Shown: piece by piece, positions 36,595 to 60,785 of the stretch
How positions within the stretch are numbered: the stretch's first letter is position 1
How the letters are laid out: every line of letters begins with the position of its first letter
Sequence record: EU863409
Reading direction: 5' to 3' (one strand)
DNA from: Escherichia phage JS10
Length of the DNA stretch: 64,000 bases
Notes under the pieces: model-generated
The model's input: the letters and a program-made list of their open reading frames with translations, nothing else
Databases searched by the model: none
What the model was told of the DNA's origin: nothing
Translations under genes and position numbers: made by a program

Positions 36595-36598
36595 AAAT

Positions 36599-36672: not shown

Positions 36673-36677
36673 TTAAT

Positions 36678-38424: not shown

Positions 38425-38490
38425 TTTATTCTCCAATCACTCATTTGTTTTGATAGGGCTATAGTATCATCACTAAAGCCCGTTGTAAAC
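38425..38490 (-). promoter_or_regulatory. PeSL-like promoter-stem-loop cassette (covarying stem)
   Basis: core GATAGGGCTATAGTATCA with stem GGGCTATAG / CTAAAGCCC; -35 GTTTAC. Confidence 0.55.
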
Positions 38491-38492
38491 AC

Positions 38493-38786: not shown

Positions 38787-38855
38787 TTTTTTGTTTCCGT
38801 TAGGTTGGGTTTGTTTTGATAGGTCTATAGTATCATGCCTATAGACCTTGTAAAC
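38787..38855 (-). promoter_or_regulatory. PeSL-like promoter-stem-loop cassette
   Basis: -35 GTTTAC (38850-38855), 17-bp spacer, -10 TACTAT; perfect 10-bp stem 38821-38830 / 38839-38848. Confidence 0.6.
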
Positions 38856-38866
38856 ATCTTTTTAAA

Positions 38867-39780
<914 letters not shown>

Positions 39781-39788
<8 letters not shown>

Positions 39789-40542
39789 TTTTATTTCCTA
39801 ATAATTTATCAATAGTGGTGTATAGTTCAGAAAGAGTGCCGTTATTTTCAACAACAACGTCACCAGGTAAAATTGGTAGACCCGCTTCAGTGATGTGCGA
39901 GTCTTGTACTTGACCGGTTTCAGCGCGAACTACATGAATAATCGTAGCACCCATCGCTCTGAGCGAATCAATTTCATGTGTTTGACGAACATCAGGTACG
40001 ACATAGTATTTCGCATCAGAGTATATTTTATCAAAATAGTCTAAAGCGAACAACTTAACCCAATACATCTTATCAAATTGGTTAACAATAATATCAGTCC
40101 CAAGGGTCTGCATGAGACGACGTACTGACCAATTGTTATTTTTATTTATTACTTCAAATAGCCGGTCTTTTGTTTCTTCAGACAGATACTGGACCGGGGT
40201 AAGACCATAATGATATGCGGTAAGAACGTCAATTCCTGGAATAGGAAGGATATTATTCAGTTTAACAATAGCATGTTCAAAAATATCAACCACATCATAT
40301 GGTTTTAAAGGAAGGATTTCTTCACGGTCGTAACCGATACCTTCAAAACAGTTAAAATCAAGTTTAGGCATATAGATACGGTCGAATACAGGGTCATCAG
40401 ATATGTATTCATAAGCTTCAGCCAGATACTTTTTAATAGGACCAGCGAGTTGGAATTTTACGGAATCCATATTCTCAATTACATAGTTAGCAACGGTATC
40501 CTTACCGCTACGTTTGATTCCTACAATTGATATTAGTTTCAT
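39781..40542 (-). CDS. 1: deoxynucleoside monophosphate kinase (gp1)
   Basis: 253 aa; P-loop GIKRSGKDT; T4 synteny. Confidence 0.85.
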
Positions 40543-41132
40543 TATTTTCTCATAGATGGATGCATAGACATACGAGCCACACGTTGTTCGGCATACGAAT
40601 CAATTTGTGGACGACCTGTAACTATTGTACCATCTATTTCTACAGCAAACGATTTGAAGTTGAATGTTGCTGTAGCGATTATCGCAGGGTCGGAATCTTC
40701 TTTATAAGAGTACTGAATCTCGGAAAGGTCTGATGGCCAACCACCGTAGTAATGAATGCTCATTACGATTTTCTGTTTGTTGTTATCAAGAATGTGGAGG
40801 GTGATAGCCTCAGGCTGGCCTTTAGGATGCCAGGCTTCAGATTCATGTGTTACATAGTTGTTTAATGATAGCATCCATTTATAAACGTCCAGCCATGATT
40901 TCAATTCGCGGTCTACAAGAAAGTTCACAATCAAAGGGTCGAATTCTACAGTAGAACCTGGCAGTTTAGCACGGTTTATACCTTGGGTCGATCCTGGGAC
41001 GTCTGAGACCGGAATATGGATACCTGGTAGTGTTACATCTTGTACGTTCAATTTGAATGACTGCGTCATTCCTGAGTCACTAACCTCTAAGATAAAGTTG
41101 GTAGTGTTAGTTTGGTTAAATAAACCGTTCAT
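40542..41132 (-). CDS. 3: tail completion / sheath stabiliser (gp3) by position
   Basis: 196 aa from internal ATG with AGGA SD; T4 order 1-3-2-4. Confidence 0.6.
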   Translation of the reverse strand: MNGLFNQTNTTNFILEVSDSGMTQSFKLNVQDVTLPGIHIPVSDVPGSTQGINRAKLPGSTVEFDPLIVNFLVDRELKSWLDVYKWMLSLNNYVTHESEAWHPKGQPEAITLHILDNNKQKIVMSIHYYGGWPSDLSEIQYSYKEDSDPAIIATATFNFKSFAVEIDGTIVTGRPQIDSYAEQRVARMSMHPSMRK

Positions 41133-41217
41133 AGGATTCCTATATTGCTTAAGTCCTAGCCAGTGTATAATGGTCCTAGGTCTGTTCCATTCAATAACTG
41201 GCTGGGATAATAGATTA

Positions 41218-42045
41218 TTATGCGTTCTTCCATACTTTCTGAGCTGAGTAACGCTTACCTTTAGATACAAATTGCTGAAGCGGAAGCATGACCACATTAG
41301 CCCAATCAGAAGGTTTTATCTCTACTAAAGGACCCTTGATATTTCCAGGGATATAAGCCTTAATCATCACGTCAGCGCCAGCGAATCCTTTTACCTTACT
41401 CCAATCGATTTTTAATTTAGTCGAGTTCGTAATGGTAGGCGTACTCGCGTATTGCTTCAGCAATTCTTCTAGAAATTGCTGGCGTGCTTTAGGCGGAATA
41501 TAGTGTAAGTTCAACCCGTACATCAGATTATGCTTACCAAGCCCAAGATAAATGATTAAAGGATATTTGTCCCAGTAGGGTAATGTGTCCTTGTGTTTAG
41601 CATCATAGATATAAGCATAAAGCTTGCCAGGAGATGGTTTAGATACCTGGTGTCCACGAATTCCTTTCTTTAATGTTTCTGTAAACCATTTAGCTGATTT
41701 ATTGTTTACAGCAGCACCTTCGTTAGCAATCTTATCACGAATACTCTTTCTAAAACTATTCACCAAAATTAATTGACGTTCGGCTTTGGTCAATTTATTG
41801 CCAGGTTTCTTCTGGAGTTTTTCGACCTGTACAGCAGTTTTAATTCGACTCGAGTATCGAGACATCGCAGATGTAAAGCTAGAATACTTAATGCCTTTAT
41901 CTTCAGCGAATTTCTTAGCCGAGACACCTTTGGCCTTAGCTTTGGCATATTCAACACCTAAAGCTATCCATTGTTGCTCTGAACGAGTGGGCTTAGAACC
42001 TTTTGTGGTTTCAGTGGCCTCATTGATGTAGGAAAATATACTCAT
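41218..42045 (-). CDS. 2: DNA end-protector protein (gp2) by position
   Basis: 275 aa; ATGA overlap with gene 4 stop. Confidence 0.65.
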
Positions 42046-42491
42046 CCTTTCCATCCTAATTTTTTCAGTGAGTTTTCAGTTATCAATCTAAAATTGATTC
42101 CCATTTTATCTGCTGTAGCTTTAGCAGCTTTCCATTTATCTTTATTTACACTCCATGTATAATGTTCGTTGATATATCTCTTTTTAGCGGCTGTAGTCAT
42201 TTTAGCAGGAGCCGCTGGAGGATGGGTTTCTTTAAAAGGTTTGACTTCAAAAAAGAATTGTTGGCCGTTATCAAACTTAACCCAGAAGTCCATAAAATAT
42301 CGACGTTTCTTTCCATCAGCATTACTAAAATACGGAATAACTACCTCTTCAGAGTTCCATTGGACTACGTTAGGATGATTGTCAAGCCAACGCATGAGCC
42401 ATGCTTCCCATGAGGAACGATATTGGATTTTCTTCCAGTCACCTTTATATTTTTGTAAGTTGGTAGGTTTAAATTTCCCTGAGTAAGCCAT
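42042..42491 (-). CDS. 4: head completion protein (gp4)
   Basis: 149 aa resembling T4 gp4 (MAYSGK..., KKRRYFMD); TATAAATA late promoter upstream. Confidence 0.85.
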
Positions 42492-42502
42492 AGTTGCCTC
42501 CT

Positions 42503-42510
42503 TATAAATA
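42503..42510 (+). promoter_or_regulatory. T4-type late promoter (TATAAATA) for gene 53 operon
   Basis: Exact TATAAATA 28 nt upstream of gene 53 ATG. Confidence 0.6.
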
Positions 42511-42517
42511 TTAATAT

Positions 42518-42525
42518 TATTTATA
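42518..42525 (-). promoter_or_regulatory. T4-type late promoter (TATAAATA) for genes 4-2-3
   Basis: Exact TATAAATA on minus strand 27 nt upstream of gene 4 ATG; divergent from the gene 53 promoter. Confidence 0.6.
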
Positions 42526-42537
42526 CTCGGAGGCCCT

Positions 42538-43140
42538 ATGCTCTTCTCATTTTTCGATCCTATCGATTACGAATCAAAAACAGTCAAGCCAGATTCCGGC
42601 TCATTAACAAATGCCGATGTATTGAGCGTGCCGATGACTGATATATTTAGAAATTATAAAGAATACTTTGATAGAGTGGCTAAAAATTATACACTAAAAA
42701 CTTATTATATCAATGGAGCCCCGCGTCCGGAAGAATTAGCCCATCTTCTTTATGGCAATGTCCAATTATATTGGGTTCTACTGATGTGTAATAATATATA
42801 CGACCCGTATTATGGATGGATTACCGGCCAAGAAGCCGCCTACCAAGCAGCCATCCAAAGATATTCTACTGCTGGTGGAAACCAGGTCCTTTACCATGTA
42901 AACGAAAAAGGCGAGAAATTCTGGAATCTTGTCAACACACCAGAAAATCCGTATACTTGGTATGATAAAGGCGATACAGAAAAACGTTATCCTCAATACG
43001 AAGGCCCGTTGGCTGCAGTAGATATTTACGAGGATGCTATTCGCAAAAATGAATATAAGCGTGAAATAAAAATTATAGACCCTAATGATATTGAGTCTTT
43101 TATTTCTGCCCTTATTCGTGAAATGGAGAAAGCCCTCTAA
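42538..43140 (+). CDS. 53: baseplate wedge protein gp53
   Basis: 200 aa resembling T4 gp53 (MLF.FFDPI, TYYI.G.PRPEELA); GGAGG SD; TATAAATA upstream. Confidence 0.85.
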   Translation: MLFSFFDPIDYESKTVKPDSGSLTNADVLSVPMTDIFRNYKEYFDRVAKNYTLKTYYINGAPRPEELAHLLYGNVQLYWVLLMCNNIYDPYYGWITGQEAAYQAAIQRYSTAGGNQVLYHVNEKGEKFWNLVNTPENPYTWYDKGDTEKRYPQYEGPLAAVDIYEDAIRKNEYKREIKIIDPNDIESFISALIREMEKAL

Positions 43141-44882
43141 TGATTAACATGTCTGATAATTTAAGTTGGTTCGTCGGTGTAGTTGAAGACCGAATGGACC
43201 CACTCAAACAGGGCCGAGTACGCGTACGCGTCTGGGGTATGCATCCATATGAAAAAGTACAAGGTCCTGTAAAAGGCCTTCGTACAGAAGATTTACCATG
43301 GATGTCGGTATTAATGCCTACATCTTCTGCCTCTGTTTCAGGTATCCAAACCGCTATGACTGGTATGGTCCCTGGTACACAAGTTTACGGACACTTTCTT
43401 GATAAGTGGAAATTAAACGGGCTTGTCCTCGGCACATATGGTTCAGCTTCAAAACAAAAGGCGAATCCAAACGAAGGTTTTAGTGACCCAACAGGACAGT
43501 ATCCGCTTTATTTAGGTAATGATGCCGCTGCACTAAACCGAGGTGGTGAAGTTGGGTATGATGCCACTTCTAACGTAATACAAGATGCAAACACTGATGT
43601 AGGTATTAATCCGGATGGATTAGATTTAAGCCAAGTTAAGCCTGATGATAATCCTAATTTCACAATAGAAAACATGCTTCATCGTGATGAAGGGCTTAGA
43701 CTGAAGGTATATTGGGATACCGAAGGATACCCTACTATTGGTATAGGTCACCTTATTACACCACAACCTATTAGAGATATGAATCAGATAAACAAAATAT
43801 TATCTAATCAAATAGGCCGAGAAGTTAAAGGTAACCCTGGTGCAATATCAATGGACGAGGCTTCCAAGTTATTCCAAGAAGACCTTAAAAAAGTTCAAAA
43901 CGATATAGGCAGGCATAGTGTTGTAGGTCCGGTTTACAATAAAGAAAACCGTTCAAGACAAATGGCTCTTGAAAACATGGCTTTCCAAATGGGTTTAGGT
44001 GGACTTGCCAAATTTAAAACGATGCTTGGCGCAATGCTAGTCGGAGATTATAAGAAAGCATTTGATGCCGCTCGTGATTCAGTATGGTTCAACCAAACTA
44101 AAGGCCGAGCATCAAGGGTATCAATGATTATCCTTACGGGTAATATGGAATCATACGGTATTATGGCCCCTAAAGAAAGAGAATTTAAAGGACGTTCGTA
44201 TAGGATGATTCAAACCTTTGCGGCTCCTGCAAATTCTGACCCAGCCGACCCATGGACTCCGGAAGATACAAGGATTCTTTTTAAAGAACCTGATTCTAGT
44301 TATAAAGGCGAATACCCATATGTCCAAACCATGCAAACTGAAGGTGGGCATATCCAAGAATTCGATAACACCCCAGGGCAAGAACGTTACCGATTAATCC
44401 ACCCTACAGGTAGTTACGAAGAAGTCGCTCCTGACGGACGTAAAACTTCTAAGACAGTAGCCGACGGGTATTATATGACCCAAGGCGATTCCAATACTTA
44501 TGTTGGCGGTAATAATAAAGTCAATATAGGTGGCGATGAAACCTATTATAATATGGCAAACGTTCGACGTCAAACTGACGGTTCTGAAAGCATCCATATT
44601 CGTGGTAATGAAACCAAAACAGTAGAAGGCGACGGGACCCTTATTGTTAAAGGAAATGTTACGGTTATTGTTGAAGGCAATGCCGATATAACTGTTAAAG
44701 GTGATGCAAAAACCTTAGTCGAAGGCAATCATGATTATACAGTAAATGGAAATGTTAAGTGGTCGGTAAACGGAAACGTCGATATGACTGTTGCCGGTAA
44801 TTGGTCTGAAACTATGTCGACTATGAGTTCTATTGCGTCCGGTCAATATACTATTGATGGTTCGAGGATTGACATTGGCTAA
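43140..44882 (+). CDS. 5: baseplate hub and tail lysozyme gp5
   Basis: 580 aa; central lysozyme domain (YWDTEGYPTIGIGHLI); C-terminal beta-helix repeats. Confidence 0.9.
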   Translation: MINMSDNLSWFVGVVEDRMDPLKQGRVRVRVWGMHPYEKVQGPVKGLRTEDLPWMSVLMPTSSASVSGIQTAMTGMVPGTQVYGHFLDKWKLNGLVLGTYGSASKQKANPNEGFSDPTGQYPLYLGNDAAALNRGGEVGYDATSNVIQDANTDVGINPDGLDLSQVKPDDNPNFTIENMLHRDEGLRLKVYWDTEGYPTIGIGHLITPQPIRDMNQINKILSNQIGREVKGNPGAISMDEASKLFQEDLKKVQNDIGRHSVVGPVYNKENRSRQMALENMAFQMGLGGLAKFKTMLGAMLVGDYKKAFDAARDSVWFNQTKGRASRVSMIILTGNMESYGIMAPKEREFKGRSYRMIQTFAAPANSDPADPWTPEDTRILFKEPDSSYKGEYPYVQTMQTEGGHIQEFDNTPGQERYRLIHPTGSYEEVAPDGRKTSKTVADGYYMTQGDSNTYVGGNNKVNIGGDETYYNMANVRRQTDGSESIHIRGNETKTVEGDGTLIVKGNVTVIVEGNADITVKGDAKTLVEGNHDYTVNGNVKWSVNGNVDMTVAGNWSETMSTMSSIASGQYTIDGSRIDIG

Positions 44883-44916
44883 TATTTTACCTATGAGCAC
44901 TGATTTAGGAGATTCC

Positions 44917-45414
44917 ATGGAAGGAGCCTCAATCGATGTTACGTTTACCGCTCAATTAGAAACAAACGAAACATTAGTTGAAATAAATATAACAGAATAT
45001 GAGCCAACAGAAGGCATTATTGTCGATGGGGCTCGTTTATACGGAACCTATGAATCGGTATTCGGATTTTCTGAAGATGCTTTAAAATATCGATTAGGTG
45101 ATGAATTTAAAACAGCAGGTTCATGGAAAGATTTACCAGAGGACAAGAGCACTCAATTATACCTCTGGAAAGCCCCTGGTAATCTTCAGAAGACTTTTTC
45201 CTATACCGTCACATTAATCTATGACTTTCAGGAAGAGTCATCAGGAGGTGATACAGGGAGCTCAGGAGGAAGTAATTCTAGAGCCGGTAACGAAACAGAC
45301 CCTCCTCCAGCACCGGTAAGAAAAACTCTTACTAAGGTTTATACCAAGGTTATAGTGGGTAATTGGAGTCGCTGGGGAGACCAATTAAGAGAATATGTAT
45401 ATGCAAGACCATAG
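44917..45414 (+). CDS. 5.1-like hypothetical protein
   Basis: Start at ATG with AGGAG SD; 165 aa. Confidence 0.5.
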   Translation: MEGASIDVTFTAQLETNETLVEINITEYEPTEGIIVDGARLYGTYESVFGFSEDALKYRLGDEFKTAGSWKDLPEDKSTQLYLWKAPGNLQKTFSYTVTLIYDFQEESSGGDTGSSGGSNSRAGNETDPPPAPVRKTLTKVYTKVIVGNWSRWGDQLREYVYARP

Positions 45415-46015
45415 ATACTTTTACCTATATTGCATAACCAATAAATTAAATGGTATGATTTATGTGGGTGTTCATCAAACAGATAATTTAGAAGATGGAT
45501 ATATGGGGTCTGGTAAGGCCCTTAAAGAAGCCCAAGCCGAACTAGGGATGGATAATTTCGACAAACATATTATTAAATTCTTTGGAACCCAGGATGAGTG
45601 TTATTTAGCTGAAAGAGAAATAGTTAACAAATCCTTCGCAAAGTCTTCTTTAACATATAATATAAAGAAAGGAGGCATGGGTGGTTGGATTGTAAGGAAT
45701 GGATATAAACATACCGAAGCTACTAAAGATAAAATGAGAATTTCCGGTAGTGGATGTAATAATGGATTTTATGGAAAGAAACATTCTGAAGAAACTATAA
45801 AAGCTATTGCCGAAGCCAACTCTAAATGGGAAAGAAAGCCAAATCAAAGGGAAAAAATGTCTAAAAAGCATTCAGGCAAAAACAATCCTATGTTTGGTAC
45901 TGTGGCTCCTAATGCAATAACAGTTAAATACAACGGGGAAGAATATACAAGCATTTCTTCTGCGGCAAAAGCAGCAGGATTATCCACTTCAACATTTAGA
46001 AGAAGGTATCTATAA
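45395..46015 (+). CDS. GIY-YIG homing endonuclease (Seg-like)
   Basis: N-terminal [25 protein letters not shown] motif followed by repeated NUMOD-like G(Y/K)KHSEET modules. Confidence 0.75.
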
Positions 46016-46308
46016 TGTCGGGCTTAAGTTATAATCAATGCGTAACAGCAGGTCATGAAGCATGGCCTCCTACAGTAATAAATGCCACCCAGGGTAAAGT
46101 ATTTACAGGCGGCATTCCTGTATTAGTCGATGGGGACCCAATAACTCCTCATACAGAAATTAAAAAACCATATGAAACCCACGGTGGGGTAACCCAACCT
46201 AGAACATCAAAGGTATATGTTACAGGCAAAAAGGCTGTCCAAATGGCAGACCCTATTTCGTGCGGAGATACAGTCGCACAAGCCTCATCTAAAGTATTCA
46301 TAAAATAG
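46015..46308 (+). CDS. 5.4: baseplate spike tip PAAR-like protein gp5.4
   Basis: 97 aa, size and position match T4 gp5.4. Confidence 0.8.
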
Positions 46309-46316
46309 GAATTAAA

Positions 46317-48275
46317 ATGGCTACTCCTACGAATTACCAATTAACAAGAACCGTTAACGCTATCCCAAAAGTATTTGTGGGAGCTACGTTTGAAGAAATT
46401 AAAAAGAATATTATCGATTGGCTTTCCAGCCAGGAAGAATTTAAGGATTACGATTTCGTTGGTTCTCGAATGAATATCCTTATTGATATGCTTGCTTATA
46501 ATACTCTTTATATACAGCAATTTGCTAACACAGCTTTATACGAGTCTTTTATAGGAACAGCAAACCTTCGTTCTTCGGTTGTCCAAGCTGCACAAGATAA
46601 CGGATACCTTCCTAGTTCTAAATCCGCGGCAAAAACAAGTATTATGTTGACCTGTACTCAGGCCCTGAATGAAAAGAATATTCGTATCCCACGTGGTACT
46701 AAATTCTTGGCCTATGCTCGTGATACTTCAGCAGACCCGTATGCTTTTGTTACCACGGAAAACGTTATTGCCGTACGTGATGTTAATAACCAATATCTCC
46801 CTATTGTATCTTTAGCACAAGGTCGTATTATTCGTACTGAACTTAAGTATGACCCTAAAACCCCTATTCTTATTCGTGACCCAGATATCGATAGACAAGA
46901 AGTCAAACTTTATGTCGATGGTGCAGAATGGACTAACTGGACTAATAAATCCATGGTTCATGCTGGTAGTACATCAACCATTTACTATATGCGTGAAACC
47001 GTAGATGGTAATACCGAATTCTTCTTTGGTGAAGGCGTTGCCGAAAAATCAGTTGCGGGCGGTGTATTAGAAGCTAACTATATTGGTGGTTTAAAACCTG
47101 TTAAAGATGCTACCATTGTTATAGAATATCTTCGTACCGATGGTGAAGTTGCTAACGGCGCAGTGGACTTTAGTTATGCGGATTCTTTGGCATATATTAC
47201 GGTTGAAAAAATTACAGAAAACTATGATGGGAATCCGGATTATGTAGGTGCTGATGGTGGTGGTGACCCTGAAGATATCGAACGTATTCGTGAACTGGCT
47301 GTAGTTAAACGCGAAGCCCAGATGCGTGCCGTAACTGGTACGGATTATGATACATTCGTTTCAGAGCGATTTGGTTCTATTGTACAAGCAGTACAAACCT
47401 TTACGGACCCAAATAAACCAGGTTACGCCTTTGTTACTATTAAACCTAAATCAGGATTGTATTTGACTGCGGTTCAACGTGAAGATATCCAAAATTATCT
47501 TTCAGAATTTAACTTGGCGCCTATTACTCCTTCGGTTATTTCTCCAGACTACTTGTTCTTAAAGCATAAAATTAAGGTTTCATATGCACTGAACAAATTA
47601 CAGGAATCCGAACAATGGCTAACGGCTCAAATCCTTTCTCAAATAGACCGTTATTATATTAACGAAGTTGAAATATTCAACCACGGATTTGCCAAGTCTA
47701 AAATGCTGACTTATATTGATAATGCAGACCACAGTATCCTTGGCTCTTCGGCTACGGTAACAATGGTTCGCGAGGTATTAAACTTCTTCAAAACACCTGA
47801 AGCGGGTATTAAATACTATAATCAATACACCAACCGTTCTGTAACTTCTAGTGAATTTGAGTTCGTCCCAACAAACGTATCGGATGATATTAAATCTTAT
47901 AACGTACGTATTGTTGCCACAGATAAAGACGAACGAGGCGATGGTAAAATGGTTATAGGTCCTTTCCGTCCAGGTGATGTAATTGAAAACCAATACATCC
48001 AACCTTATACCGGAGATGACTTCGATAAAATGGCAGCTCCTGCAGACCAATCAGTCTACTATGTTATTGGCGAAATTGATTATTACTCAGACTTTATTTT
48101 CTGGGATATCGCCGCAATAGGCCTTACTTCTGACCGTTTTGAAGTCCAGTCTATTGAACTTTATGCAGGGCCAGACCAAGACAACATCTTTACCAAAGAC
48201 GGTTCTCTAATCGTATTTGAAGATGACCTTCGTCCTCAGTACACAACTATAGAGTTGGAACCAATTACAATATAA
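46317..48275 (+). CDS. 6: baseplate wedge protein gp6
   Basis: 652 aa; T4 order. Confidence 0.85.
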   Translation: MATPTNYQLTRTVNAIPKVFVGATFEEIKKNIIDWLSSQEEFKDYDFVGSRMNILIDMLAYNTLYIQQFANTALYESFIGTANLRSSVVQAAQDNGYLPSSKSAAKTSIMLTCTQALNEKNIRIPRGTKFLAYARDTSADPYAFVTTENVIAVRDVNNQYLPIVSLAQGRIIRTELKYDPKTPILIRDPDIDRQEVKLYVDGAEWTNWTNKSMVHAGSTSTIYYMRETVDGNTEFFFGEGVAEKSVAGGVLEANYIGGLKPVKDATIVIEYLRTDGEVANGAVDFSYADSLAYITVEKITENYDGNPDYVGADGGGDPEDIERIRELAVVKREAQMRAVTGTDYDTFVSERFGSIVQAVQTFTDPNKPGYAFVTIKPKSGLYLTAVQREDIQNYLSEFNLAPITPSVISPDYLFLKHKIKVSYALNKLQESEQWLTAQILSQIDRYYINEVEIFNHGFAKSKMLTYIDNADHSILGSSATVTMVREVLNFFKTPEAGIKYYNQYTNRSVTSSEFEFVPTNVSDDIKSYNVRIVATDKDERGDGKMVIGPFRPGDVIENQYIQPYTGDDFDKMAAPADQSVYYVIGEIDYYSDFIFWDIAAIGLTSDRFEVQSIELYAGPDQDNIFTKDGSLIVFEDDLRPQYTTIELEPITI

Positions 48276-48302
48276 GCCTCTTCGGAGGTTTAAGGAGATT
48301 TA

Positions 48303-51300
48303 ATGTCTGTACAAGCGCCTTATGTTACTAGTCTGAGAATTGATAAGCTCTCGGCTAACCATGTGAGCATTCTTTGGGATGACGTAGGCGCCAACTTCTA
48401 TTATTTCGTAGAACTGGCCCAAACGAAGGATGCGGGTGTAGAAATTCCCGACGATAGATTATTTTGGAGAAATTTAGGTTACACCCCTAATAACGAATGG
48501 TTTGAAGAGGCATTCATTTCTCCTAATTCATTTTATAAAATGCGAGTTGCGGTCGCTGCTCAGGGGTTTGAGCAGTCTGAGTGGGTTTACACTGAAGAAT
48601 TTGAAACTTTCTCTACCAACGCATATACATTTGAGCATATGCGTGAATTCACATTGTCTAATAAATTTATTGAAGAAAAATTCACAAAAAATAATCAGAA
48701 TTATGTGAACTTTAATACCGATGCCATTATGGCTTCCTTAATGACGGAAGATTTTAACTTTACGCCGGCGTATTCGCATTTGTCATCTATATCAAATTAT
48801 GTTTTAAAAGCCGACCGATTCCATGAAATCCAAGGAAGCATTCAAGCAGTTTGTAAAGACCCTAGACGTTCTATTTTAATGGAACTTGGTGGAGTTCTGT
48901 ATCTTTTAGAAAGATTCCAAAGCACAGCTAAAGTTTCTAATGATAAAGGACAAAACTGGCACTATATTAGATTGTTTAACGATAGAGTGGGTAATCCGGT
49001 ATCTAGAACGGCTCATTACCAAACAGAAACTACTACATACGTACTAGGTTATGACCAAATATTTTACGGGCGTAAATCAAGTGATATTAGATGGTCTGCT
49101 GATGACGTTCGCTTTAGTTCTCAGGACGTAACATTTGCTAAAATCGGTAGTGATATAGACCTTCCGTTTGAAATAGAAATATTTGGGTCATACGCAAAAC
49201 TCCCATTGCCTATTTCCACTATCGCCGAAGCTATGTGTGCTTCTGACGATTTCATTTATGTTGCGGGTAGAGACAGAGTTTATAAAGCAAAAACATCCGA
49301 GGCCCCTATAGACACCGACCCTAGCTCACCAACTTACGGCGAGAAGATATTTGAAAGCGGATATTCAACTATCACAGGGAACCCTAAAGCTGTTTGTTAT
49401 AAATTAGATTCTATTCAAGGGCATACGTTTGCTTTAATTACAGGTGAAGTTAAAGAAGAAAAAATGGACCCTACAGTAGAGGCTAACGTAATTGATTCTG
49501 AATCTAAAGGTGTCTATTGGTTGGATGTAGAAACAGATACTTGGACTCGTGTATTCGGAAATACTGAAGAAGAACGTCGTCGTATAGAGCATGGATATAC
49601 TAGCATGTCTACAGATGGTGAAGAATTATTTTTCAGTTCAAGCAACTTTAGATACGAAGTAGAGGTTGATTCTGAACTTCCTTGGAAATATCCTGAAATT
49701 GTTACTTCGGCCGTTAAATACGTTAAAGACGAACAGTGGATTCATAATAAGCATTATTTGATGATGAGCTTTAGGTCTAACTCTAAATCAGATTTTAAAG
49801 AATTTAAACCAGGTCGTATGGCTTATTATGCTGAACCATTCTTCAGTTGGTCACGTCGTGATGGAACCCGTTCTTGGATTACTACAGGTGACCATGCGAT
49901 GGTTGTTTATAACGATGCTTTGTATCAGAAAATAATCGACCTTAATAGTGGTTCATCGCCGGAACGTATTGTTCACGAGATTTGGAATAAAGGATTTTGC
50001 AAAGTTACATCCCCTAATATCGAATTTAATGGCTTTAAAAAATATTCCTCTGGTATGATGATTCACAAATCTACCGGTGAATTAGTTGGTTATTTTGAAT
50101 TCGACTATCGTGTGCGTGATGAAGTCCGTGTTATTTGGAAGCCTAAAGAAATTATGTTTACGGCAGAGCTCCAAAACCAAGAGCATGAAATTCCATGGGC
50201 CCCTAAAGAAGAGACCGGCGAACAAGACCCTGATTTGAAACCGTTATTGGTCAAAATGGTTCCGGATAGTTATTTACTCCAAGATTCCAATTTTGAAAAA
50301 TTCTGCGAATATTATCTACAGTTTATTAGTGATGGTTCCGGCACTCATTATAATAATTTGTTAAACCTTATTCGTAATCAGTATCCTCGTGAAGAAGACT
50401 CATGGGAATACCTATGGTCTGAAATTTATAAACGTAATATCTATTTGTCAAAAGAAAAACGCGACGAAGTTGTTAGATTTTTCCAAGCTCGTCAGTCTGA
50501 TTTTTGGTCAACTAAAGGTACTGAAGCTTCATATAAATTCCTGTTTAAATTGCTTTATAATGAAGATGTCGAAATTGATATCGAGTCCAAGAACTCTATC
50601 GAATATGATATCATCGTAGAATCCGACAATATCAGTGAAGATATCGTAGGCCAAACGATTTATACTCCTACAGGAAGAAGTAATGTTACTTATATAGAAC
50701 GAAATTACAAAGATGGTAAATTGCAATGGCGTTTAACCATTCATAATCTTTTGGGTCGTTTTATAGTCGGTCAGGAAATCAAATCTGAACGTACTTCATT
50801 TAAGGGTATGATTGTTCAAGGTGTTCGCGGCAAAGAGCTTTTGAGTAACAATATCGATTATATCAACCGTAACCGTTCTTACTATGTGATGACTATTAAG
50901 TCTAATCTCCCGACCTCTCGTTATCGCAATGACGTTTTGAGATTTGTTCACCCGGTAGGTTTCGGCTTTATAGGTATAACTTTGCTTTCTATGTTTGTTA
51001 ACGTTGGTTTAACACTAAAACATACAGAAACCATTATTAATATCCTTAAGAACTATAAATGGGACTCAGGTTTGCCATCTGAATGGTATGATAGAGTTGC
51101 TGTAATAGGTTTTGATGGTAATATAGAACGAGACCCTCGTACAGGTGCTCCGATGTACAACGTTGGACCTAAAGCAGGTGAGCCATTTGATATTCCTGCC
51201 GATTATGATGCAGAAAATGATTTCTCTGTATTCCAAGGTCAATTACCACACGAACGTATTAAAAAGCATAGTCCATTGTTTGACCAAAGTGCTGTGACTT

Positions 51301-55195: not shown

Positions 55196-55860
55196 TGACT
55201 TTAACTGAAATGAAAAGCGGGTTAAAATCCCGCTTAGCTGACTATTTGGAATTATCTTACACCAGTGACAAGCCTACTGCTGTTGCTGACCAACGACCTA
55301 TCGGTGGCCCTTCTGCAAACCAAACCCAGAAGGGTGTTTATTTTCCTACAGTCCAAAGTGCAATAGATGATATTGCATTTAGAACAGAGCTTCCTGTGAA
55401 CTCTGTTATTATTACCACAGAAAACAGAGCACCTGGATTTATCCAACAATCTGATAAAATTACATTTACCGGTTCTATTTCTTCAGGCGGCGAACTTGGC
55501 GACCCTGTTATTATTAAAGTGTTTGGACTTCCTGTAGAGGTCTTAGTTGGTGATTCATCTGTATTGGTTGCATCTAAAGTAAATGATGTATTTTTAGACG
55601 CCATTGCTAATAGCTATATTTTAGCCGAAACGTCTATTGACGCCTTAGACCAATCTACCTTGAATATTAAATACAATGACTATCAGAATCATATTTTTTC
55701 ACCATATAAACAATCGGGTTGTACAATTTCCCATACTATAGTCCAGCAGCCAAGGGCTGGATATGGTAAGTGGGAATACTTAGGTAACTCTACCCAATCG
55801 TTAGCAGGTGGTACAGTTAACGGCACGATTCCTTTATATTACTATAAGAGATTATATTAA
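55195..55860 (+). CDS. 11: baseplate wedge and tail pin protein gp11
   Basis: 221 aa; T4 order and size. Confidence 0.8.
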   Translation: MTLTEMKSGLKSRLADYLELSYTSDKPTAVADQRPIGGPSANQTQKGVYFPTVQSAIDDIAFRTELPVNSVIITTENRAPGFIQQSDKITFTGSISSGGELGDPVIIKVFGLPVEVLVGDSSVLVASKVNDVFLDAIANSYILAETSIDALDQSTLNIKYNDYQNHIFSPYKQSGCTISHTIVQQPRAGYGKWEYLGNSTQSLAGGTVNGTIPLYYYKRLY

Positions 55861-57386
55861 TGTCAACAAACACACTAAAACACATTAGTGATAAATCGGA
55901 ATTCAAATCATTCGACCCTACTGGGTCGAATTTCCCGCCTGATATTACTAATGTTCAAGAAGCATTGGCAACTATTTCATTAATCGGCGTCACAGGTAAT
56001 GTTCCTTCAGCCACAGAAACGTCCCAAGGCATTATTCGTCTTGCCACCACACAAGAAGTAATGGATGGATTGGATGCTTATAGTGCAGTGACTCCGGCAA
56101 CTTTAAAAGCTCGTTTAGATATTCCTACTCAGGCAACAGAAACTTATGTAGGTATCACCCGTTATGCTACTAACGCTGAAGCCATAGCAGGCACAGAGCC
56201 CCAGGCTGCAATCGTAGCAACCTCTTTGAAAGCGGTAATGGATTATACATTTGAGAACCGTTTATCAACAGAGAACGCCACAGGCGTTATCAAGATTTCA
56301 ACTACACCTGCTGCATTAGCTGGTACCGATGATACCACAGCAATGTCCCCACTTAAAGTATCGCAAGCAATTGGTGCGGCCACAGCAGCGTTACCGGTTT
56401 ATTCTACGGCAACGACCACAAATGAAGGTTTGGTTCGTTTAGCTACTAATGCTGAAGTTGGCAATGGAAGTCTTTCGGTAGGTATTGCTATTTCTCCAGC
56501 CGGATTAGCCACATTAACTTCCACCGAAGCCAGAAGTGGTATTATTAAACTCGCAGGTTGGGATATGGTATCTAATGGTACTGACCATACTGCCGCTGTT
56601 ACTCCGGCATCTTTGCTAGCTCGTACAGGTAATACAGGACGAATTGGCTTGGTTCGTTTATCTACTACAGTTGGACAAGGCGATGGTAATACGGCCCTGG
56701 CTTATAATGCTAACGTTATTTCTACTTCAGGTGGTGAAATATGGGGTACTTTAAACGTTAATGGCACATTACGTCGTAATGGTGTTGATGTTGTTACCCA
56801 CGACCAATTATCAGATAGCGTTCCGGTAGGTACTATTTGTATGTGGGGTGGACATGAAGGTAATATCCCAGGCAAATGGCGAGCTTGTGTAGGTGGGACT
56901 TATACTGGCGGTGCATATTTAAATGCTGTTGGCGGACGTTGGGGATGGTGGGGTGCTATTCCAGATTTCCGTGGATTATATCCTCGCGGTGCTAACATGG
57001 TCGGTGGATATTCTGAAGGTGAAGTTAACCCACATATTGCCGGTAACCGAGGAGAAGACGGTAAAGGTAAAGCCCGTTTAGGTAACGGTGTAGGTTCGTT
57101 CCCACAATCTTCTGTTCAAGCCCAAGCATTACGTTATCATAAACACGCCGGTGGTTTTGGTGAACATGATAACTATGGTGCTTTTGGTAACACCGCTAAC
57201 TCTGGGTATGTTGGTACTCGTAAAGGACTTGACTGGGATAACCGTAGTTATTATACTAACGAAGGGTTTGAGACCACTGAACCTTGGAACCGTGATGGCC
57301 ATACCACACTGAATAGTGAAGGACTTATTGCAAATGAAACACGTCCTTGGACAATGTCCGTTCTTTTTATTATTAAAGTAGAATAA
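55860..57386 (+). CDS. 12: short tail fibre gp12
   Basis: 508 aa; N-terminal G-x-x-R-L-A-T repeat motifs typical of gp12. Confidence 0.85.
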   Translation: MSTNTLKHISDKSEFKSFDPTGSNFPPDITNVQEALATISLIGVTGNVPSATETSQGIIRLATTQEVMDGLDAYSAVTPATLKARLDIPTQATETYVGITRYATNAEAIAGTEPQAAIVATSLKAVMDYTFENRLSTENATGVIKISTTPAALAGTDDTTAMSPLKVSQAIGAATAALPVYSTATTTNEGLVRLATNAEVGNGSLSVGIAISPAGLATLTSTEARSGIIKLAGWDMVSNGTDHTAAVTPASLLARTGNTGRIGLVRLSTTVGQGDGNTALAYNANVISTSGGEIWGTLNVNGTLRRNGVDVVTHDQLSDSVPVGTICMWGGHEGNIPGKWRACVGGTYTGGAYLNAVGGRWGWWGAIPDFRGLYPRGANMVGGYSEGEVNPHIAGNRGEDGKGKARLGNGVGSFPQSSVQAQALRYHKHAGGFGEHDNYGAFGNTANSGYVGTRKGLDWDNRSYYTNEGFETTEPWNRDGHTTLNSEGLIANETRPWTMSVLFIIKVE

Positions 57387-57395: not shown

Positions 57396-59795
57396 ATGAT
57401 TAACAAATTGGAACTTAGTGAGTTACCATTTGTTGACGGCGTACCTGATGCTCCTCAAAAGCGTATCCAATGGATACGCGAGGGTGATTGTATGTCTGCG
57501 GCAAAAACAAAATACGGCAATGAAGGTAATTTGAACGCTGCTGCTTTAGGAGTTCAGAAAAACGTAGAAGCTCTTGATGCCAACGATTTAAAAACTGCTG
57601 ATAAAGTTAATGAGCTTATAGAAAACGTTAATAATATCAATGACGCTTTAGAAATGTCAACAGATATTTCTATCATTCAACAAATAGAGAAAAACCGTGT
57701 TGATATTGTAGACCTTAAAAAAGTCACCGAAGATACAACAGAAAAATTGGACACCTTAACAACCAATTTTGATTTCTTGCGTGAAGATGTTGGTTATCAT
57801 GACCCTTTACAAGACGGCCCATATTTAACTGTACGTGAAAATATTGTTCTTCTTAAAACTGAAATAGGTCATTATGAAAACCAGGATATAAACGGCAATC
57901 CACTGCCTCCTGGCGAAACTAATGAAGCCACTGGTATAAAACGCCGCATCATGGATAATACCACTGAATTGGTGGACCATCGTCTCCGCCTTGATACCCT
58001 TGAAAGAAACTATGAAGATTCTGATGTTGGACAATTGGGTATTAAATTAAATGAAATTCGCGCCGAATTAGGACCACATTCTGATACGGTAGGTAAACAA
58101 CCTGCATATACCCGAATTTCAGTATTAGAAACGGCTGCAGTTAATTTTAATACAGCTATTGACGAAATTAAGGATAATATTGATTTCTCTGGTATGCCTA
58201 TAAAGGACCGAGTAACTACTTTAGAAAGCAAAACCTTTACCTTAGAAAATTCGGTTAATGTTGATTTAAAACCTAGAGTAACTTCTATAGAAACTCAAAT
58301 CGGATCCGAGTCTGCACCGGCATCTATTAATGGTCGTTTAAGCGGACTTCGTACTGATGTAAATGATTTAAAAACCGTAGTAGGTGTTAGTTCAAGTGAT
58401 GGCCTACGTTTCCAAGTTACTGATATCAACCGCCGTTTAGGTAGTGAAGTATCTCCGGCTGCAGGAACCATTAATAAGCGTTTAAATGATGTTATTATTC
58501 AAGCAAACCAATCCACCTCGTCTATCCAGGATATTCAGGTAAAAATTGGTAACAACCAATCCGGTATTAAGGGTACTTTACTTAAACTCACCGATAAGGT
58601 TGACGGGACGAACCCTAACGGAGCTACCGTAGAAGAACGTGGTCTTATTAATGCGGTTACTTCTTTAGAAACCCAGATGCAAGGTAAATTAGGTGATGCA
58701 CCTTCTGATGGTAAACTCTATGCACGTCGAAATGCGGCATGGGCTGAAGTTGTTAATAATTCCACAGAAATAGAAACCGTTAAAGCCGATTTAGTTGTTA
58801 CCGACGGTAAAGTGACCGCGTTAACTTCCAGAGTAGATGGTAATGATACCTCAATTTCTTCTCTTGATACTCGTACCGGTGCATTAAACACTTCGGTTGG
58901 CGAGATTAAAGCTGATATAGTTTCTATAAAGGCTAAAGATGATGAACAGGATGGTCGTTTAACAGCACTTGAATCTAGTGATGTGACCATTAACGGTAAA
59001 ATTGCTGCTCTTGAAACTAAGACAGATACCACTGATGATGATGTCACAGCACTGGCTTTAGACGTTTCTTCTTTAGAGAACCAATTGACTCCTATAAAAG
59101 CCGATATTACCAAAAACAAAGGTGATATTGTTGCCTTAACTGGTCGAGTGGCTTCTACTGAAGGCGAAATTAATGCAATTAAAGTTGATACAGCCAAAAT
59201 TGCTCCTTTAACAACTAGAGTTACTACGGCAGAAGGTAAAATCACTACTTTAGAAACAGGGCTTGCCGCTGTTAAAGTCGAATCCGATAAGGTAGCAGGT
59301 ATTAATACCCGCCTTAGCACTGCAGAAGGTGACATCGGAACACTTAAAACAGGGTTGGCTGAAGTTAAGGGTGAATCCGATAAAGTAGCAGCTATAGATA
59401 CCCGTTTAGGTGTTGTTGAAGTTGAATCAGGTAAAGTAGCAGGAATCGATGCTCGTTTGGGTGATGTTGAAGGCGAAGTTAGTACTCTTGAAACGGGTTT
59501 AGCTGCCGTTAAAGTCGAATCCGATAAGGTAGCAGGTATTAATACCCGTTTAGGTACGGTCGAAGGTAAAGTTGGTACTCTTGAAACAGGTTTGGCTGCT
59601 GTTAAAGTTGAATCTGATAAAGTTGCTGACTTAGGAACCCGTTTAACCGCCGCCGAAGGTAAAATTACGGCCTTAGAAACAGAATTATCTAAACGTCCAC
59701 CGGTGGCTCCTGCCGCAGACGGACTTCCGTATGTTCTGGTTGATAACGCATGGGTATTATTGTCTGATTTTGTGACTTTAAACTCAGCGCCATAA
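57396..59795 (+). CDS. wac: fibritin (whisker antigen control, wac), expanded
   Basis: 799-aa coiled-coil protein with C-terminal foldon-like YVLVDNAWVLLSDF; internal tandem repeats; followed by terminator. Confidence 0.8.
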   Translation: MINKLELSELPFVDGVPDAPQKRIQWIREGDCMSAAKTKYGNEGNLNAAALGVQKNVEALDANDLKTADKVNELIENVNNINDALEMSTDISIIQQIEKNRVDIVDLKKVTEDTTEKLDTLTTNFDFLREDVGYHDPLQDGPYLTVRENIVLLKTEIGHYENQDINGNPLPPGETNEATGIKRRIMDNTTELVDHRLRLDTLERNYEDSDVGQLGIKLNEIRAELGPHSDTVGKQPAYTRISVLETAAVNFNTAIDEIKDNIDFSGMPIKDRVTTLESKTFTLENSVNVDLKPRVTSIETQIGSESAPASINGRLSGLRTDVNDLKTVVGVSSSDGLRFQVTDINRRLGSEVSPAAGTINKRLNDVIIQANQSTSSIQDIQVKIGNNQSGIKGTLLKLTDKVDGTNPNGATVEERGLINAVTSLETQMQGKLGDAPSDGKLYARRNAAWAEVVNNSTEIETVKADLVVTDGKVTALTSRVDGNDTSISSLDTRTGALNTSVGEIKADIVSIKAKDDEQDGRLTALESSDVTINGKIAALETKTDTTDDDVTALALDVSSLENQLTPIKADITKNKGDIVALTGRVASTEGEINAIKVDTAKIAPLTTRVTTAEGKITTLETGLAAVKVESDKVAGINTRLSTAEGDIGTLKTGLAEVKGESDKVAAIDTRLGVVEVESGKVAGIDARLGDVEGEVSTLETGLAAVKVESDKVAGINTRLGTVEGKVGTLETGLAAVKVESDKVADLGTRLTAAEGKITALETELSKRPPVAPAADGLPYVLVDNAWVLLSDFVTLNSAP
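59223..59675 (+). repeat. tandem coiled-coil repeat region inside wac
   Basis: At least three copies of an approx 30-aa unit TLETGLAAVKVESDKVAGINTRL; two copies share a long identical nucleotide block. Confidence 0.6.
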
Positions 59796-59796
59796 T

Positions 59797-59818
59797 AAAA
59801 GGGCTTCGGCCCTTTTTT
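59797..59818 (+). terminator. intrinsic terminator after wac
   Basis: AAAAGGGC-TTCG-GCCC followed by T6. Confidence 0.7.
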
Positions 59819-59820
59819 GC

Positions 59821-59828
59821 TATAAATA
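59821..59828 (+). promoter_or_regulatory. T4-type late promoter (TATAAATA) for gene 13
   Basis: Exact TATAAATA directly after the wac terminator. Confidence 0.6.
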
Positions 59829-59849
59829 CGGTTATTAGAGGAATAAAAC

Positions 59850-60785
59850 ATGGCAAGTGAATCATATAACCCTAAGCAACTCAAGGACGCTATTCTGCGC
59901 CGCCTGGGTGCACCGATTACAAATATTGAAGTAACTACTGACCAAGTATATGATTGCATCCAGCGCGCCCTGGAGCTCTACGGCGAATACCATTATAACG
60001 GGTATAACAAAGGTTATCAGGCTTTTTATATTGGCCATGACGATGAAGAAAAATTCCGTAATGGCGTATTCGACCTTAAAGGACGTAATATATTTGCAGT
60101 AACACAAATTTTGAGAACTAACGTTGGCTCTTTAACATCTATGGACGGGCAAGCAACTTATCCATGGTTTACAGATTTTGTACTAGGTTTGGCAGGTATT
60201 AATGGTGGTCTTGGGTCTTCATGTAATAGTTTTGGGCCTAATGCCTTCGGCGCCGACCTTGGCTATTTTACACAATTAATGCAATATCGTTCTATGATGC
60301 AGGACCTTTTGGTTCCGCTGCCTGATTATTGGTATAATGATGCCACTGAACAATTGAAGGTAATGGGCAACTTTGTTAAAGGCGACTTTATTGTAATTGA
60401 AGTTTATACCCGTTCATTTAATGGCGTTGATTCCATGGTTGGGAATACAGCAGGATATGGATATGCTTCTGGTGGCTGTGACGAAAATGAATGGAGCCCT
60501 GGGGCTATTTGGGACAATCCTGCACGTCGAATTTCAGGAATGAGAGCTGGCGAGGACCTTGGACTACAAGATGGCGCGTATAATAACCGTTGGGTCAAAG
60601 ATTACGCTACGGCATTAGTTAAAGAGGTCAATGGTAATATTTTAGCCAAACACCAAGGTATGCAATTAGCCGGCGGAACCACTGTAGATGGCATTCGATT
60701 GATTGAAGAAGCTCGTTTAGAAAAAGAACGTCTTCGCGAAGAATTAGATTTGCTCGACCCACCAACACCTATTTTAATTGGATAA
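59850..60785 (+). CDS. 13: neck protein gp13
   Basis: 311 aa resembling T4 gp13; TATAAATA upstream. Confidence 0.85.

Follow-up and report, generated by a model that had tools for sequence, protein, structure and literature searches.

The closest described system is the JS98-type fibritin, reported by Latypov et al. 2007 and by Letarov & Krisch 2013 (PMC3797505), in which a coiled-coil spacer that varies in length lies between two T4-like foldon motifs. Self-trimerisation was reported for JS98 fibritin, and assembly as a parallel trimer with binding to gp13 and to the knee of the tail fibre is established for T4 fibritin only (PMC3797505). A JS98-type whisker with a variable spacer is therefore already known, and what is added here is some mechanistic detail.

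The window analyzed was a 64,000-nucleotide stretch of Escherichia phage JS10 (EU863409). In its ORF list, wac, encoding the neck whisker/collar protein, occupies 57396-59795 on the plus strand, and its product has 799 aa. The initial annotation had noted a product well above T4 length, which is correct, as T4 Wac has 487 aa. We consider it highly probable that this is a two-foldon fibritin of the JS98 type with an old 31-aa repeat array, in which the unit number has been varied by unequal recombination and the spacer is length-tolerant.

The wac locus and its two foldon-like motifs

The JS10 gene shared 93-96% nucleotide identity with the annotated wac genes of the Dhakavirus phages JS98, NC-G, and EcWhh-1, and its product matched the T4 fibritin PDB chains 3j2o and 2bsg in a phmmer search (E about 2e-72). 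It sits between homologues of gene 12 (short tail fibre) and gene 13 (neck protein), the same order as in T4. The flanking ORFs at 55860-57386 and 59850-60785 correspond to the annotated gp12 and gp13 of JS98, VR5, IME08, and others. The 54-nt gap between wac and gene 13 contains a terminator-like hairpin and a late promoter, and no further ORF. A 413-aa ORF on the minus strand (58718-59959) was rejected as a gene: it is antisense to the 3' half of wac, where repeats abound and stops are scarce, crosses the intergenic terminator and promoter, and is annotated in no relative.

The T4-colinear part of the protein (aa 5-429; 57408-58682, plus strand) comprises the N-terminal neck-binding domain and the segmented coiled-coil shaft, and was aligned by phmmer to T4 fibritin residues 4-431 without large gaps. 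Residues 6-68 matched the T4 N-terminal domain structures 1ox3 and 2ibl (E 1.8e-13). The Pfam family Fibritin_C covered aa 371-454 (profile positions 2-92 of 93, E 3e-28) with 98 bits against a cut-off of 21. The excess length had first been read as an expansion inside a T4-type shaft. This reading was abandoned, since residues 1-429 are colinear with T4 residues 4-431 and the excess consists of the spacer and a second foldon.

When JS10 Wac was scored against the T4 foldon, its two top-scoring places were two foldon-like motifs. Motif 1 (GKLGDAPSDGKLYARRNAAWAEV, aa ~429-452; 58680-58751, plus strand) was internal and obtained a local alignment score of 53, reached by 0 of 2000 shuffles. It is located where the T4 whisker ends, the Fibritin_C match stops at it (aa 454), and in comparison with the T4 foldon it has no VLLSTFL-like terminal strand. 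This internal motif was overlooked in the initial annotation. Foldon 2 (RPPVAPAADGLPYVLVDNAWVLLSDFVTLNSAP, aa 767-799; 59694-59792, plus strand) is C-terminal, and its motif PVAPAADGLPYVLVDNAWVLLSDFV (aa 768-793) scored 54, equaled by none of 2000 shuffles, in agreement with the normal-looking C-terminal foldon described at first. The JS10 Wac C-terminus thus carries a foldon-like motif with a putative hairpin fold. Both motifs were found in all 20+ relatives that were read, and foldon 2 showed zero amino-acid changes against IME08 despite a pS of 0.44.

The spacer and its 31-aa repeat array

The region between the foldons is a coiled-coil spacer of 312 aa (about aa 455-766). By heptad analysis, its 5' part (58770-59213, plus strand) runs through 21 heptads without a change of register (aa 459-605). 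The a positions of the spacer heptads are mainly I/V/L/T and the d positions mainly L/I. The best heptad frame was unchanged over aa 456-592 and afterwards advanced by +3 per unit.

The array itself (59214-59693) has four units of 31 aa, one of 17 aa, and a terminal partial unit of 19 aa, with the foldon after it. Unit parsing on the plus strand placed the 31-aa units U1 (TRVTTAEGKITTLETGLAAVKVESDKVAGIN), U2, U4, and U5 at 59214-59306, 59307-59399, 59451-59543, and 59544-59636, respectively. The short unit U3s (TRLGVVEVESGKVAGID; 59400-59450, plus strand) has 17 aa, that is, 31 minus 14, and was defined by unit parsing and a TRF period of 51. The terminal partial unit (TRLTAAEGKITALETELSK; 59637-59693, plus strand) is the last coiled-coil segment ahead of foldon 2. 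Residues 741-793 of Wac were weakly aligned by phmmer to T4 fibritin 427-483, the last T4 coiled-coil segment and foldon.

Tandem copies of about 30 residues had been proposed at this place, and they were confirmed as the 31-aa units. Self-identity of the array was 0.64 at a lag of 93 nt and 0.65 at a lag of 237, compared to a maximum of 0.43 across all lags in the codon-shuffle control (2000 shuffles); lag-93 identity in the rest of wac, outside the array, was 0.35 or less. TRF reported a period of 93 nt at 59404-59667 (scores 272 and 228) as well as the period of 51, and a repeat search found four copies at spacings of 93/144/93 nt.

Two of the copies had also been called near-identical at the nucleotide level, which is not the case in either register. 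Compared over 93 nt in our register, full units show 67-73% identity; in the register used originally, the most similar pair has 84% identity across 69 nt and 77% across 93 nt. No exact in-register run between units exceeds 36 nt, the run formed by the 3' ends of U1 and U4, and the other pairs share runs of 8-13 nt. At the protein level TLETGLAAVKVESDKVAGIN is the same in U1 and U4, with about 10 of 31 codons differing synonymously. With 67-73% identity and a longest run of 36 nt, the units are not the near-identical nucleotide copies, prone to frequent slippage, that would be expected of a fast-evolving VNTR or contingency locus. The attribution of the extra length to repeats stands in part: of the 312 residues by which JS10 Wac exceeds T4 fibritin, the array supplies only 160.

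With four heptads and three additional residues, each 31-aa unit moves the heptad frame forward by +3. The short unit U3s, at 17 aa (14+3), also gives the +3 shift. Either a stammer or a short loop could underlie the shift. The rule of n x 7 + 3 residues per unit (17, 24, 31 aa) makes a modest structural prediction that could be tested in trimeric coiled coils.

An AF2 run on aa 420-799 as a monomer from a single sequence gave a pLDDT of 67 and a nearly all-helical model, in which the 5' part of the spacer was helical at low confidence and both foldons appeared as helix or coil. Because neither foldon was recovered as a hairpin, the model is uninformative for both foldons, and it was discarded as evidence beyond helical propensity. 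Pfam detected no globular or known binding domain in the extension, just generic coiled-coil matches under the cut-off. These matches and those to PDB entries of P22 gp26, lamin, and sigma-1 were set aside as generic coiled-coil similarity, not homology. The gp26 match (4lin, E 2.5e-6, Wac aa 501-663) most likely reflects coiled-coil composition and is no evidence of common ancestry.

Length variation and age of the array

Wac was compared among about 25 Dhakavirus and Gaprivervirus phages. Its length ranged from 514 to 827 aa (514, 515, 525, 529, 689, 720, 734, 737, 751, 768, 772, 799, and 827 aa), and the spacer ran from about 27 aa, in AnYang with a 514-aa Wac, to about 340 aa, in Ec2-ASingh with an 827-aa Wac. 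Further alleles are those of MX01 (720 aa), VR5 (768 aa), IME08 (799 aa), and Esco_phi_B-01 (827 aa). An IMG/VR scan returned essentially isolate genomes already in the set, one of which contributed a 722-aa allele whose 24-aa repeat is a different one. A single repeat number in all relatives had been named beforehand as the refuting outcome, and it did not occur, since unit numbers vary among the relatives. Length differences between the phages are repeat-driven: the steps are whole 31-aa units or 7, 14, or 21 aa, these three being the indels other than whole units, which give unit sizes of 24, 17, 45, and 52.

The closest wac relative is EcWhh-1, with 768 aa. Wac length does not follow the genome backbone: the nearest backbone relative, MN04 (96.9%), has a 529-aa Wac. 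Same-species pairs also differ, with 751 aa in JS98 versus 529 aa in MN04, and 529 aa in WG01 versus 689 aa in PSD2002. A Wac of 799 aa is normal for the Dhakavirus group and no peculiarity of JS10, which corrects an annotation-level impression.

Orthologous units across phages are 88-100% identical and paralogous units 61-80%. U1 is 96-99% identical to the first unit of JS98, NC-G, EcWhh-1, and EcoM_005. The second unit of JS98 and EcWhh-1 matches U2 at 99-100% identity, whereas U2 and its own paralogues agree at only 67-70%. U3s is kept at 90-98% identity in EcWhh-1, VR5, IME08, and EcoM_005, and in every array-bearing relative the last full unit shows 92-100% identity to U5. Within JS10, paralogous units show 67-77% nucleotide identity and a pS of 0.46-0.69, and synonymous sites between the copies appear close to saturation.

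Several alleles carry crossover scars. Unit 4 of EcWhh-1 joins the 5' 43 nt of JS10 U4 to the 3' 50 nt of U5, unit 2 of NC-G joins a U2 head to a U4 tail, and unit 3 of JS98 joins a U3s/U4 head to a U5 tail. JS98 and NC-G both reached 751 aa via different 144-nt deletions. Deletion scars are present in most shorter alleles, and the Bp7-type 529-aa allele retains a U1-head remnant, an indication of two deletions from a long form. The hybrid units, judged from their composition, mark independent unequal crossovers. Homologous recombination between diverged units, across exact runs of 11-36 nt, would produce in-frame deletions and occasional duplications, and such unequal exchange would explain why the unit number varies among phages. 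Because these events add or remove whole units or multiples of 7 aa, the coiled-coil phase is preserved.

Compared with IME08, dN/dS was 0.059 in the array, 0.185 in the T4-like body, and 0 in foldon 2, with a dS of 0.90 across the array. These ratios indicate that the array is under strong purifying selection and selectively maintained.

The initial annotation had presented the repeats as an expansion, and a recent, lineage-specific tandem expansion lengthening the JS10 whiskers could account for the one 31-aa unit by which JS10 exceeds EcWhh-1 (799 vs 768 aa) and for the 36-nt exact run common to U1 and U4. Such an event is very unlikely. The paralogous units are just 67-73% identical with a pS of 0.46-0.69, and the units are positional orthologues across phages. 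The extra unit relative to EcWhh-1 is explained by the hybrid of U4 and U5, a scar left by deletion in EcWhh-1 rather than by duplication in JS10. The distant phage IME08, whose wac is just 71% identical over the first 1830 nt, has the same 31-31-17-31-31-19 layout with a distinct orthologue for each of U4 and U5, and the dS of 0.90 argues against a recent transfer of the array into IME08/IME341 from a JS10-like phage. A repeat number created by short-read assembly was also considered, since repeat arrays are a classic source of collapse and expansion and the related record CUA3 is full of N. This explanation is extremely improbable and was ruled out: the units differ at 23-33% of positions, so that reads place uniquely and the copies are too divergent to be collapsed; the reading frame is intact; and the layout recurs independently in IME08, with an IME341 wac of the same gene length. 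The divergence between units indicates that the array is old and that the JS10 fibritin was not recently expanded.

Spacer function and comparison with known fibres

In the proposed arrangement, the N-terminal domain would dock on gp13 at the neck, with the segmented coiled-coil shaft behind it. Where T4 fibritin would end, a first foldon-like motif of beta-hairpin type would follow, with the chain continuing as the spacer to the second foldon. Judging from T4 biochemistry and from Letarov & Krisch 2013, the C-terminal foldon would nucleate trimerisation and set the chain register, and the internal foldon may re-register the T4-like body. JS10 Wac is presumed to be trimeric. At ~1.5 A per residue each unit would add about 4.6 nm, and the spacer would add roughly 46 nm of rod past the T4-equivalent whisker tip.

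The initial annotation had suggested that whisker length might affect tail-fibre retraction. One possible role is adaptive length tuning, in which the unit number sets whisker reach and thereby the conditions of fibre retraction, and copy number is selected by niche. The C-terminal part of T4 fibritin contacts the fibre near the knee and controls retraction (PMC3797505). Independent recurrence, such as the different deletions behind the 751-aa Wac of JS98 and NC-G, the variation of Wac length inside species-level groups, the heptad phase preserved by indels, and the strong purifying selection on the array all fit this role. We nevertheless regard it as unlikely. The lengths of gp34, gp35, and gp36 did not co-vary with Wac length across a 285-aa Wac range (four phages, gene lengths only), the extra rod of roughly 4 to 50 nm is too wide a range for one fixed binding geometry, and phase-preserving indels are expected equally from the purging of misfolded variants. 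In its broader form, the array would be a modular whisker-length adjuster in which unit gains and losses (514-827 aa on near-identical backbones) are selected, because whisker reach or the number of unit surfaces tunes tail-fibre hold and release or because the distal rod has a second function; the dN/dS of 0.06 would then reflect a specific binding surface repeated along the rod rather than simple upkeep of the coiled coil. This form is judged improbable as well. Alternatively, foldon 1 and the T4-like body would serve the tail fibres, while the spacer and foldon 2 would form an extra distal fibre with a separate job, e.g., weak adhesion to cell surfaces or mucus, or virion spacing. This idea, which we consider quite unlikely, agrees with the position of the internal foldon at the T4 whisker end, with the higher protein conservation of the array and foldon 2 than of the T4-like body (dN/dS 0.06 and 0 vs 0.185), and with the statement of Letarov & Krisch that other variants of fibritin may function differently or have further functions (PMC3797505). 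Against it stand the Pfam result for the extension and the many natural alleles of 514-529 aa, which are nearly without spacer and so make the extension dispensable.

Our preferred reading is that of an old array in a length-tolerant spacer. Since spacers from about 27 up to about 340 aa are evidently compatible with fibritin function, the spacer most likely serves as an extension that tolerates changes in length, and not as a ruler calibrated to the binding of tail fibres. The dN/dS of 0.06 fits poorly with a merely tolerated spacer and suggests that the units do something specific. The natural allelic series on closely related backbones, with mapped crossover junctions, is of modest value as a ready-made experiment relating whisker length or the second foldon to retraction, adsorption, and virion stability. 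Such functional questions are described as open for non-T4 fibritin variants by Letarov & Krisch (PMC3797505).

Among known fibres, trimeric or dimeric coiled-coil surface fibres such as trimeric autotransporter stalks and streptococcal M proteins offer an analogy only, as does the P22 tail needle gp26. In the stalks and M proteins, recombination gains or loses coiled-coil units in frame and fibre length changes. The RB43-type fibritins, with 1 or 3 Ig-like domains (PMC3797505), share with JS10 a C-terminal module whose copy number varies between related phages within one fibritin type, but their repeated module is a globular Ig-like domain and that of JS10 is a coiled-coil unit. T4 fibritin (gpwac, NP_049771.1; PDB 1aa0, 2bsg, 3j2o, 1ox3) has a homologous N-terminal domain, shaft, and foldon; it ends in one terminal foldon, whereas JS10 Wac has an internal foldon-like motif and a terminal foldon and adds 312 aa of coiled coil with the second foldon.

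The JS98-type fibritins (JS98 Wac, AAU29287.1; JS98-C3 Wac, ABW89019.1) belong to the same genus-level group and occupy the same gene position as that of JS10. The accessible literature mentions their variable spacer length, and the 31-aa unit structure, the +3 frame shift, and the crossover scars are absent from it. JS10 wac is 93% identical to JS98 wac at the nucleotide level, and both products have two foldons with a spacer. The JS10 protein has 799 aa, compared to 751 aa in JS98 and 515 aa in JS98-C3, and relative to JS98 it keeps the 17-aa unit and one further 31-aa unit.

The wac gene and its surroundings

The wac ORF (57396..59795, plus strand) encodes a 799-aa product; the ORFs on either side resemble gene 12 (55860..57386) and gene 13 (59850..60785). 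Megablast identified it as the wac of Dhakavirus phages, where it is annotated as fibritin or neck whisker protein and sited between gp12 and gp13. Over the first 1830 nt, identity was 96.4% to EcWhh-1, 94.5% to NC-G, and 93.8% to JS98. The baseplate region of the window (30000-50000) matched MN04 best (96.9%), a phage with a 529-aa Wac, and its wac was nearest to that of EcWhh-1. The window phage is a mosaic relative to the database genomes, and no record in the phage collection reached at least 99% identity over 30000-50000 and 57396-59795.

Between wac and gene 13 are 54 nt (59796-59849) that contain a terminator-like hairpin, GGGC-TTCG-GCCC, with TTTTTT after it (59801-59818). Directly after it come a T4 late-promoter consensus, TATAAATA (59821-59828), and a GAGG ribosome-binding site upstream of the gene 13 ATG at 59850. 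On the minus strand, a 413-aa ATG ORF (58718-59959), antisense to the wac 3' half, spans this terminator and promoter. As a gene it is most likely spurious, arising from the repeat-rich, stop-poor composition, and no gene is annotated at its position in the relatives' genomes. Inside gene 12, TRF reported a 27-nt tandem repeat (57150-57205, 2.1 copies, 80% matches) in the C-terminal region of the short tail fibre, within a GGFGEHDNYGAFGNT... stretch.

Two foldons and a tandem array

A phmmer search against PDB sequences showed aa 5-429 to be colinear with residues 4-431 of T4 fibritin (E about 2e-72), and Pfam Fibritin_C matched aa 371-454 with 98 bits, up to profile position 92 of 93. The T4 foldon sequence was also run along Wac, with significance taken from 2000 shuffles. 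The two top places were aa ~429-449 (GKLGDAPSDGKLYARRNAAW, score 53; foldon 1) and aa ~768-793 (PVAPAADGLPYVLVDNAWVLLSDFV, score 54; foldon 2), and 0 of 2000 shuffles scored as high as either. Together, these matches indicate a nearly complete T4-like fibritin whose internal foldon-like motif is succeeded by about 312 extra aa and a second, complete foldon. The initial annotation had correctly called Wac longer than T4 fibritin, since T4 Wac has 487 aa, and the C-terminal foldon it described was recovered here. Its attribution of the extra length to repeats did not hold, because the 160-aa array accounts for about half of the excess and the whole excess is the known JS98-type addition.

The array starts at aa 607 (nt 59214). 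It consists of U1 (31 aa, TRVTTAEGKITTLETGLAAVKVESDKVAGIN), U2 (31 aa, TRLSTAEGDIGTLKTGLAEVKGESDKVAAID), U3s (17 aa, TRLGVVEVESGKVAGID), U4 (31 aa, ARLGDVEGEVSTLETGLAAVKVESDKVAGIN), U5 (31 aa, TRLGTVEGKVGTLETGLAAVKVESDKVADLG), and a terminal partial unit (19 aa, TRLTAAEGKITALETELSK), which precedes RPP and the C-terminal foldon. TRF found two periods, 93 nt (59404-59667; scores 272 and 228) and 51 (59372-59472), and a repeat search returned four 177-nt copies spaced by 93, 144, and 93 nt. At lags of 93 and 237, self-identity of the 480-nt array was 0.64 and 0.65, respectively, compared to a maximum of 0.43 over all lags in codon shuffles (n=2000) and at most 0.35 at lag 93 in the rest of wac, which confirms both the array and its noted position. 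Full units shared 62-68 of 93 nt pairwise (67-73%) and 19-24 of 31 aa, with about 10 synonymous codon differences per unit pair. In the register used by the initial annotation, identity of the best pair was 84% across 69 nt and 77% across 93 nt. U1 and U4 share the longest exact run between units, 36 nt at their 3' ends. Thus, the original observation was borne out except for its two copies near-identical in nucleotides.

Length variation and history of the array

Wac lengths were taken from genomes, with match span alone used for IME540, LHE83, ABTNLS3, and IME341. The product has 514 aa in AnYang, 515 in JS98-C3, 525 and 528 in VR20 and another Gaprivervirus-like contig, and 529 in Bp7, MN04, QL01, WG01, KIT01, IME281, E33, FB, LQ5, PSD9, UGJNEcP3, and UGJNEcP4. 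Longer forms have 689 aa (PSD2002, dhaeg), 720 (MX01, ABTNLsp5, dhabil, and by match span IME540, LHE83, ABTNLS3), 722 (L035), 734 (UP19), 737 (EcoM_005), 751 (JS98, NC-G), 768 (VR5, EcWhh-1), 772 (CLB_P2), 799 (window, IME08, and by match span IME341), and 827 (Ec2-ASingh, Esco_phi_B-01). Both foldons were found in every relative's Wac that was translated. The array varied by whole 31-aa units or by steps of 7, 14 or 21 aa (unit sizes 24, 17, 45, and 52), so the suspected repeat-driven length polymorphism does exist between phages (514-827 aa). Species Dhakavirus JS98 holds both JS98 (751) and MN04 (529), and Dhakavirus wg01 holds both WG01 (529) and PSD2002 (689); Wac length does not track the genome backbone. 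CUA3 (PP410321.1, vB_EcoM_CUA3) was unusable for unit counting: gene 12 and wac (record 1-3325) are mostly N runs with short sequence islands, and the surviving wac 3' end carries no gene annotation. In IME08 (HM071924.1, 232-2700), the annotated wac (2469 nt) begins upstream and overlaps the gene 12 end, which is probably a start-site error; from the start homologous to other phages, the gene has 2400 nt and encodes 799 aa.

Window U1 and U2 were 96-99% and 88-100% identical to the first and second units, respectively, of JS98, NC-G, EcWhh-1, and EcoM_005, and U5 matched the last full unit in all array-bearing relatives at 92-100%, compared to 61-80% for full units compared non-orthologously. 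By sequence, the units are positional orthologues between phages. Although identity to the wac of IME08 falls to 71% over the first 1830 nt, the 31-31-17-31-31-19 layout is the same in both. Nei-Gojobori dN/dS between the window and IME08 (799 gap-free codons) was 0.185 in the T4-like body, 0.119 in foldon 1 plus the 5' spacer, 0.059 in the array (dS 0.90), and 0 in foldon 2 (dN = 0), and pS between paralogous units was 0.46-0.69. These values indicate an ancient array under strong purifying selection. A recent expansion in the window's phage is contradicted by this paralogue pS and by the layout shared with the distant IME08.

Shorter alleles carry recombination junctions. EcWhh-1 unit 4 equals window U4 in its first 43 nt and U5 in its last 50 nt, the product of a 93-nt unequal crossover in the shared GTACTCTTGAAAC run. 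In NC-G unit 2, a 144-nt deletion joins a U2 head to a U4 tail, and in JS98 unit 3, another 144-nt deletion joins a U3s/U4 head to a U5 tail. As these deletions differ, 751 aa was reached independently. In the Bp7/MN04 allele, three successive blocks correspond to window gene positions 1301-1439, 1811-1862 (U1 head), and 2257-2400, implying two deletions from a long form. The most economical reading is an ancestral long array trimmed again and again by homologous recombination between diverged units and occasionally extended by the same process (e.g., the 827-aa alleles), with only phase-preserving products surviving.

Heptad phase and possible function of the spacer

Between aa 459 and 605, the spacer contains 21 heptads in one frame, with I/V/L/T at a, L/I/T/V at d, and a few polar heptads (e.g., DDEQDGR, TDTTDDD). 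In the array, the best heptad frame advanced by +3 at every unit (3, 6, 2, 5, 1, 4, 0), the 17-aa unit included, so that 31 = 28 + 3 and 17 = 14 + 3. The 722-aa two-foldon Wac of L035, a Gaprivervirus-like phage (IMGVR_UViG_2706795394_000001, 1501-3669), contains three tandem copies of another unit, EGEITAIKLDTAKIAPLTTRVTTA, of 24 aa (21 + 3); the window has one copy, and Ec2-ASingh and Esco_phi_B-01 have two each. Separate lineages amplify separate n x 7 + 3 units within the same spacer. Either a short loop or, if the coiled coil is continuous, a stammer could account for the +3. An AF2 monomer model of aa 420-799 was of low confidence (pLDDT 67), nearly all helix, and did not recover the foldons.

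The rise of a coiled coil is about 1.5 A per residue. At this value, the window spacer would lengthen Wac by about 46 nm, at about 4.6 nm per unit, and the natural range across alleles would be about 4 to 50 nm. Gene lengths of gp34, gp35, gp36, and gp37 were compared to Wac in four phages: JS98 (Wac 751; 1349, 373, 215, 1080), QL01 (529; 1350, 373, 215, 1107), IME08 (799; 1299, 378, 221, 1289), and AnYang (514; 1292, 374, 215, 1323). Wac length showed no relation to fibre length among them, which argues against the spacer as a calibrated ruler for fibre contact. A flexible extension would fit, as would contact through the T4-like part, which is constant. The strong protein-level conservation of the units would not be accounted for by a purely passive spacer.

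T4 fibritin helps long tail fibre attachment, and its C-terminal region grips the fibres close to their knee, keeping them retracted in adverse conditions (PMC3797505). Of the twelve fibritin trimers bound to gp13, six form the collar and six the whiskers (PMC12929629). For the JS98 type, the accessible literature reports no function besides self-trimerisation. This type, also described by Latypov et al. 2007 (JS98-C3), was defined by its two T4-like foldon motifs, with a coiled-coil spacer between them that differs in length among phages (Letarov & Krisch 2013, PMC3797505), and JS98 fibritin trimerises via these small motifs alone, without a chaperone (PMC3797505). Therefore, the two-foldon architecture of the window's Wac is already published and its type known, and the unit-level rules and crossover junctions are small additions to it.
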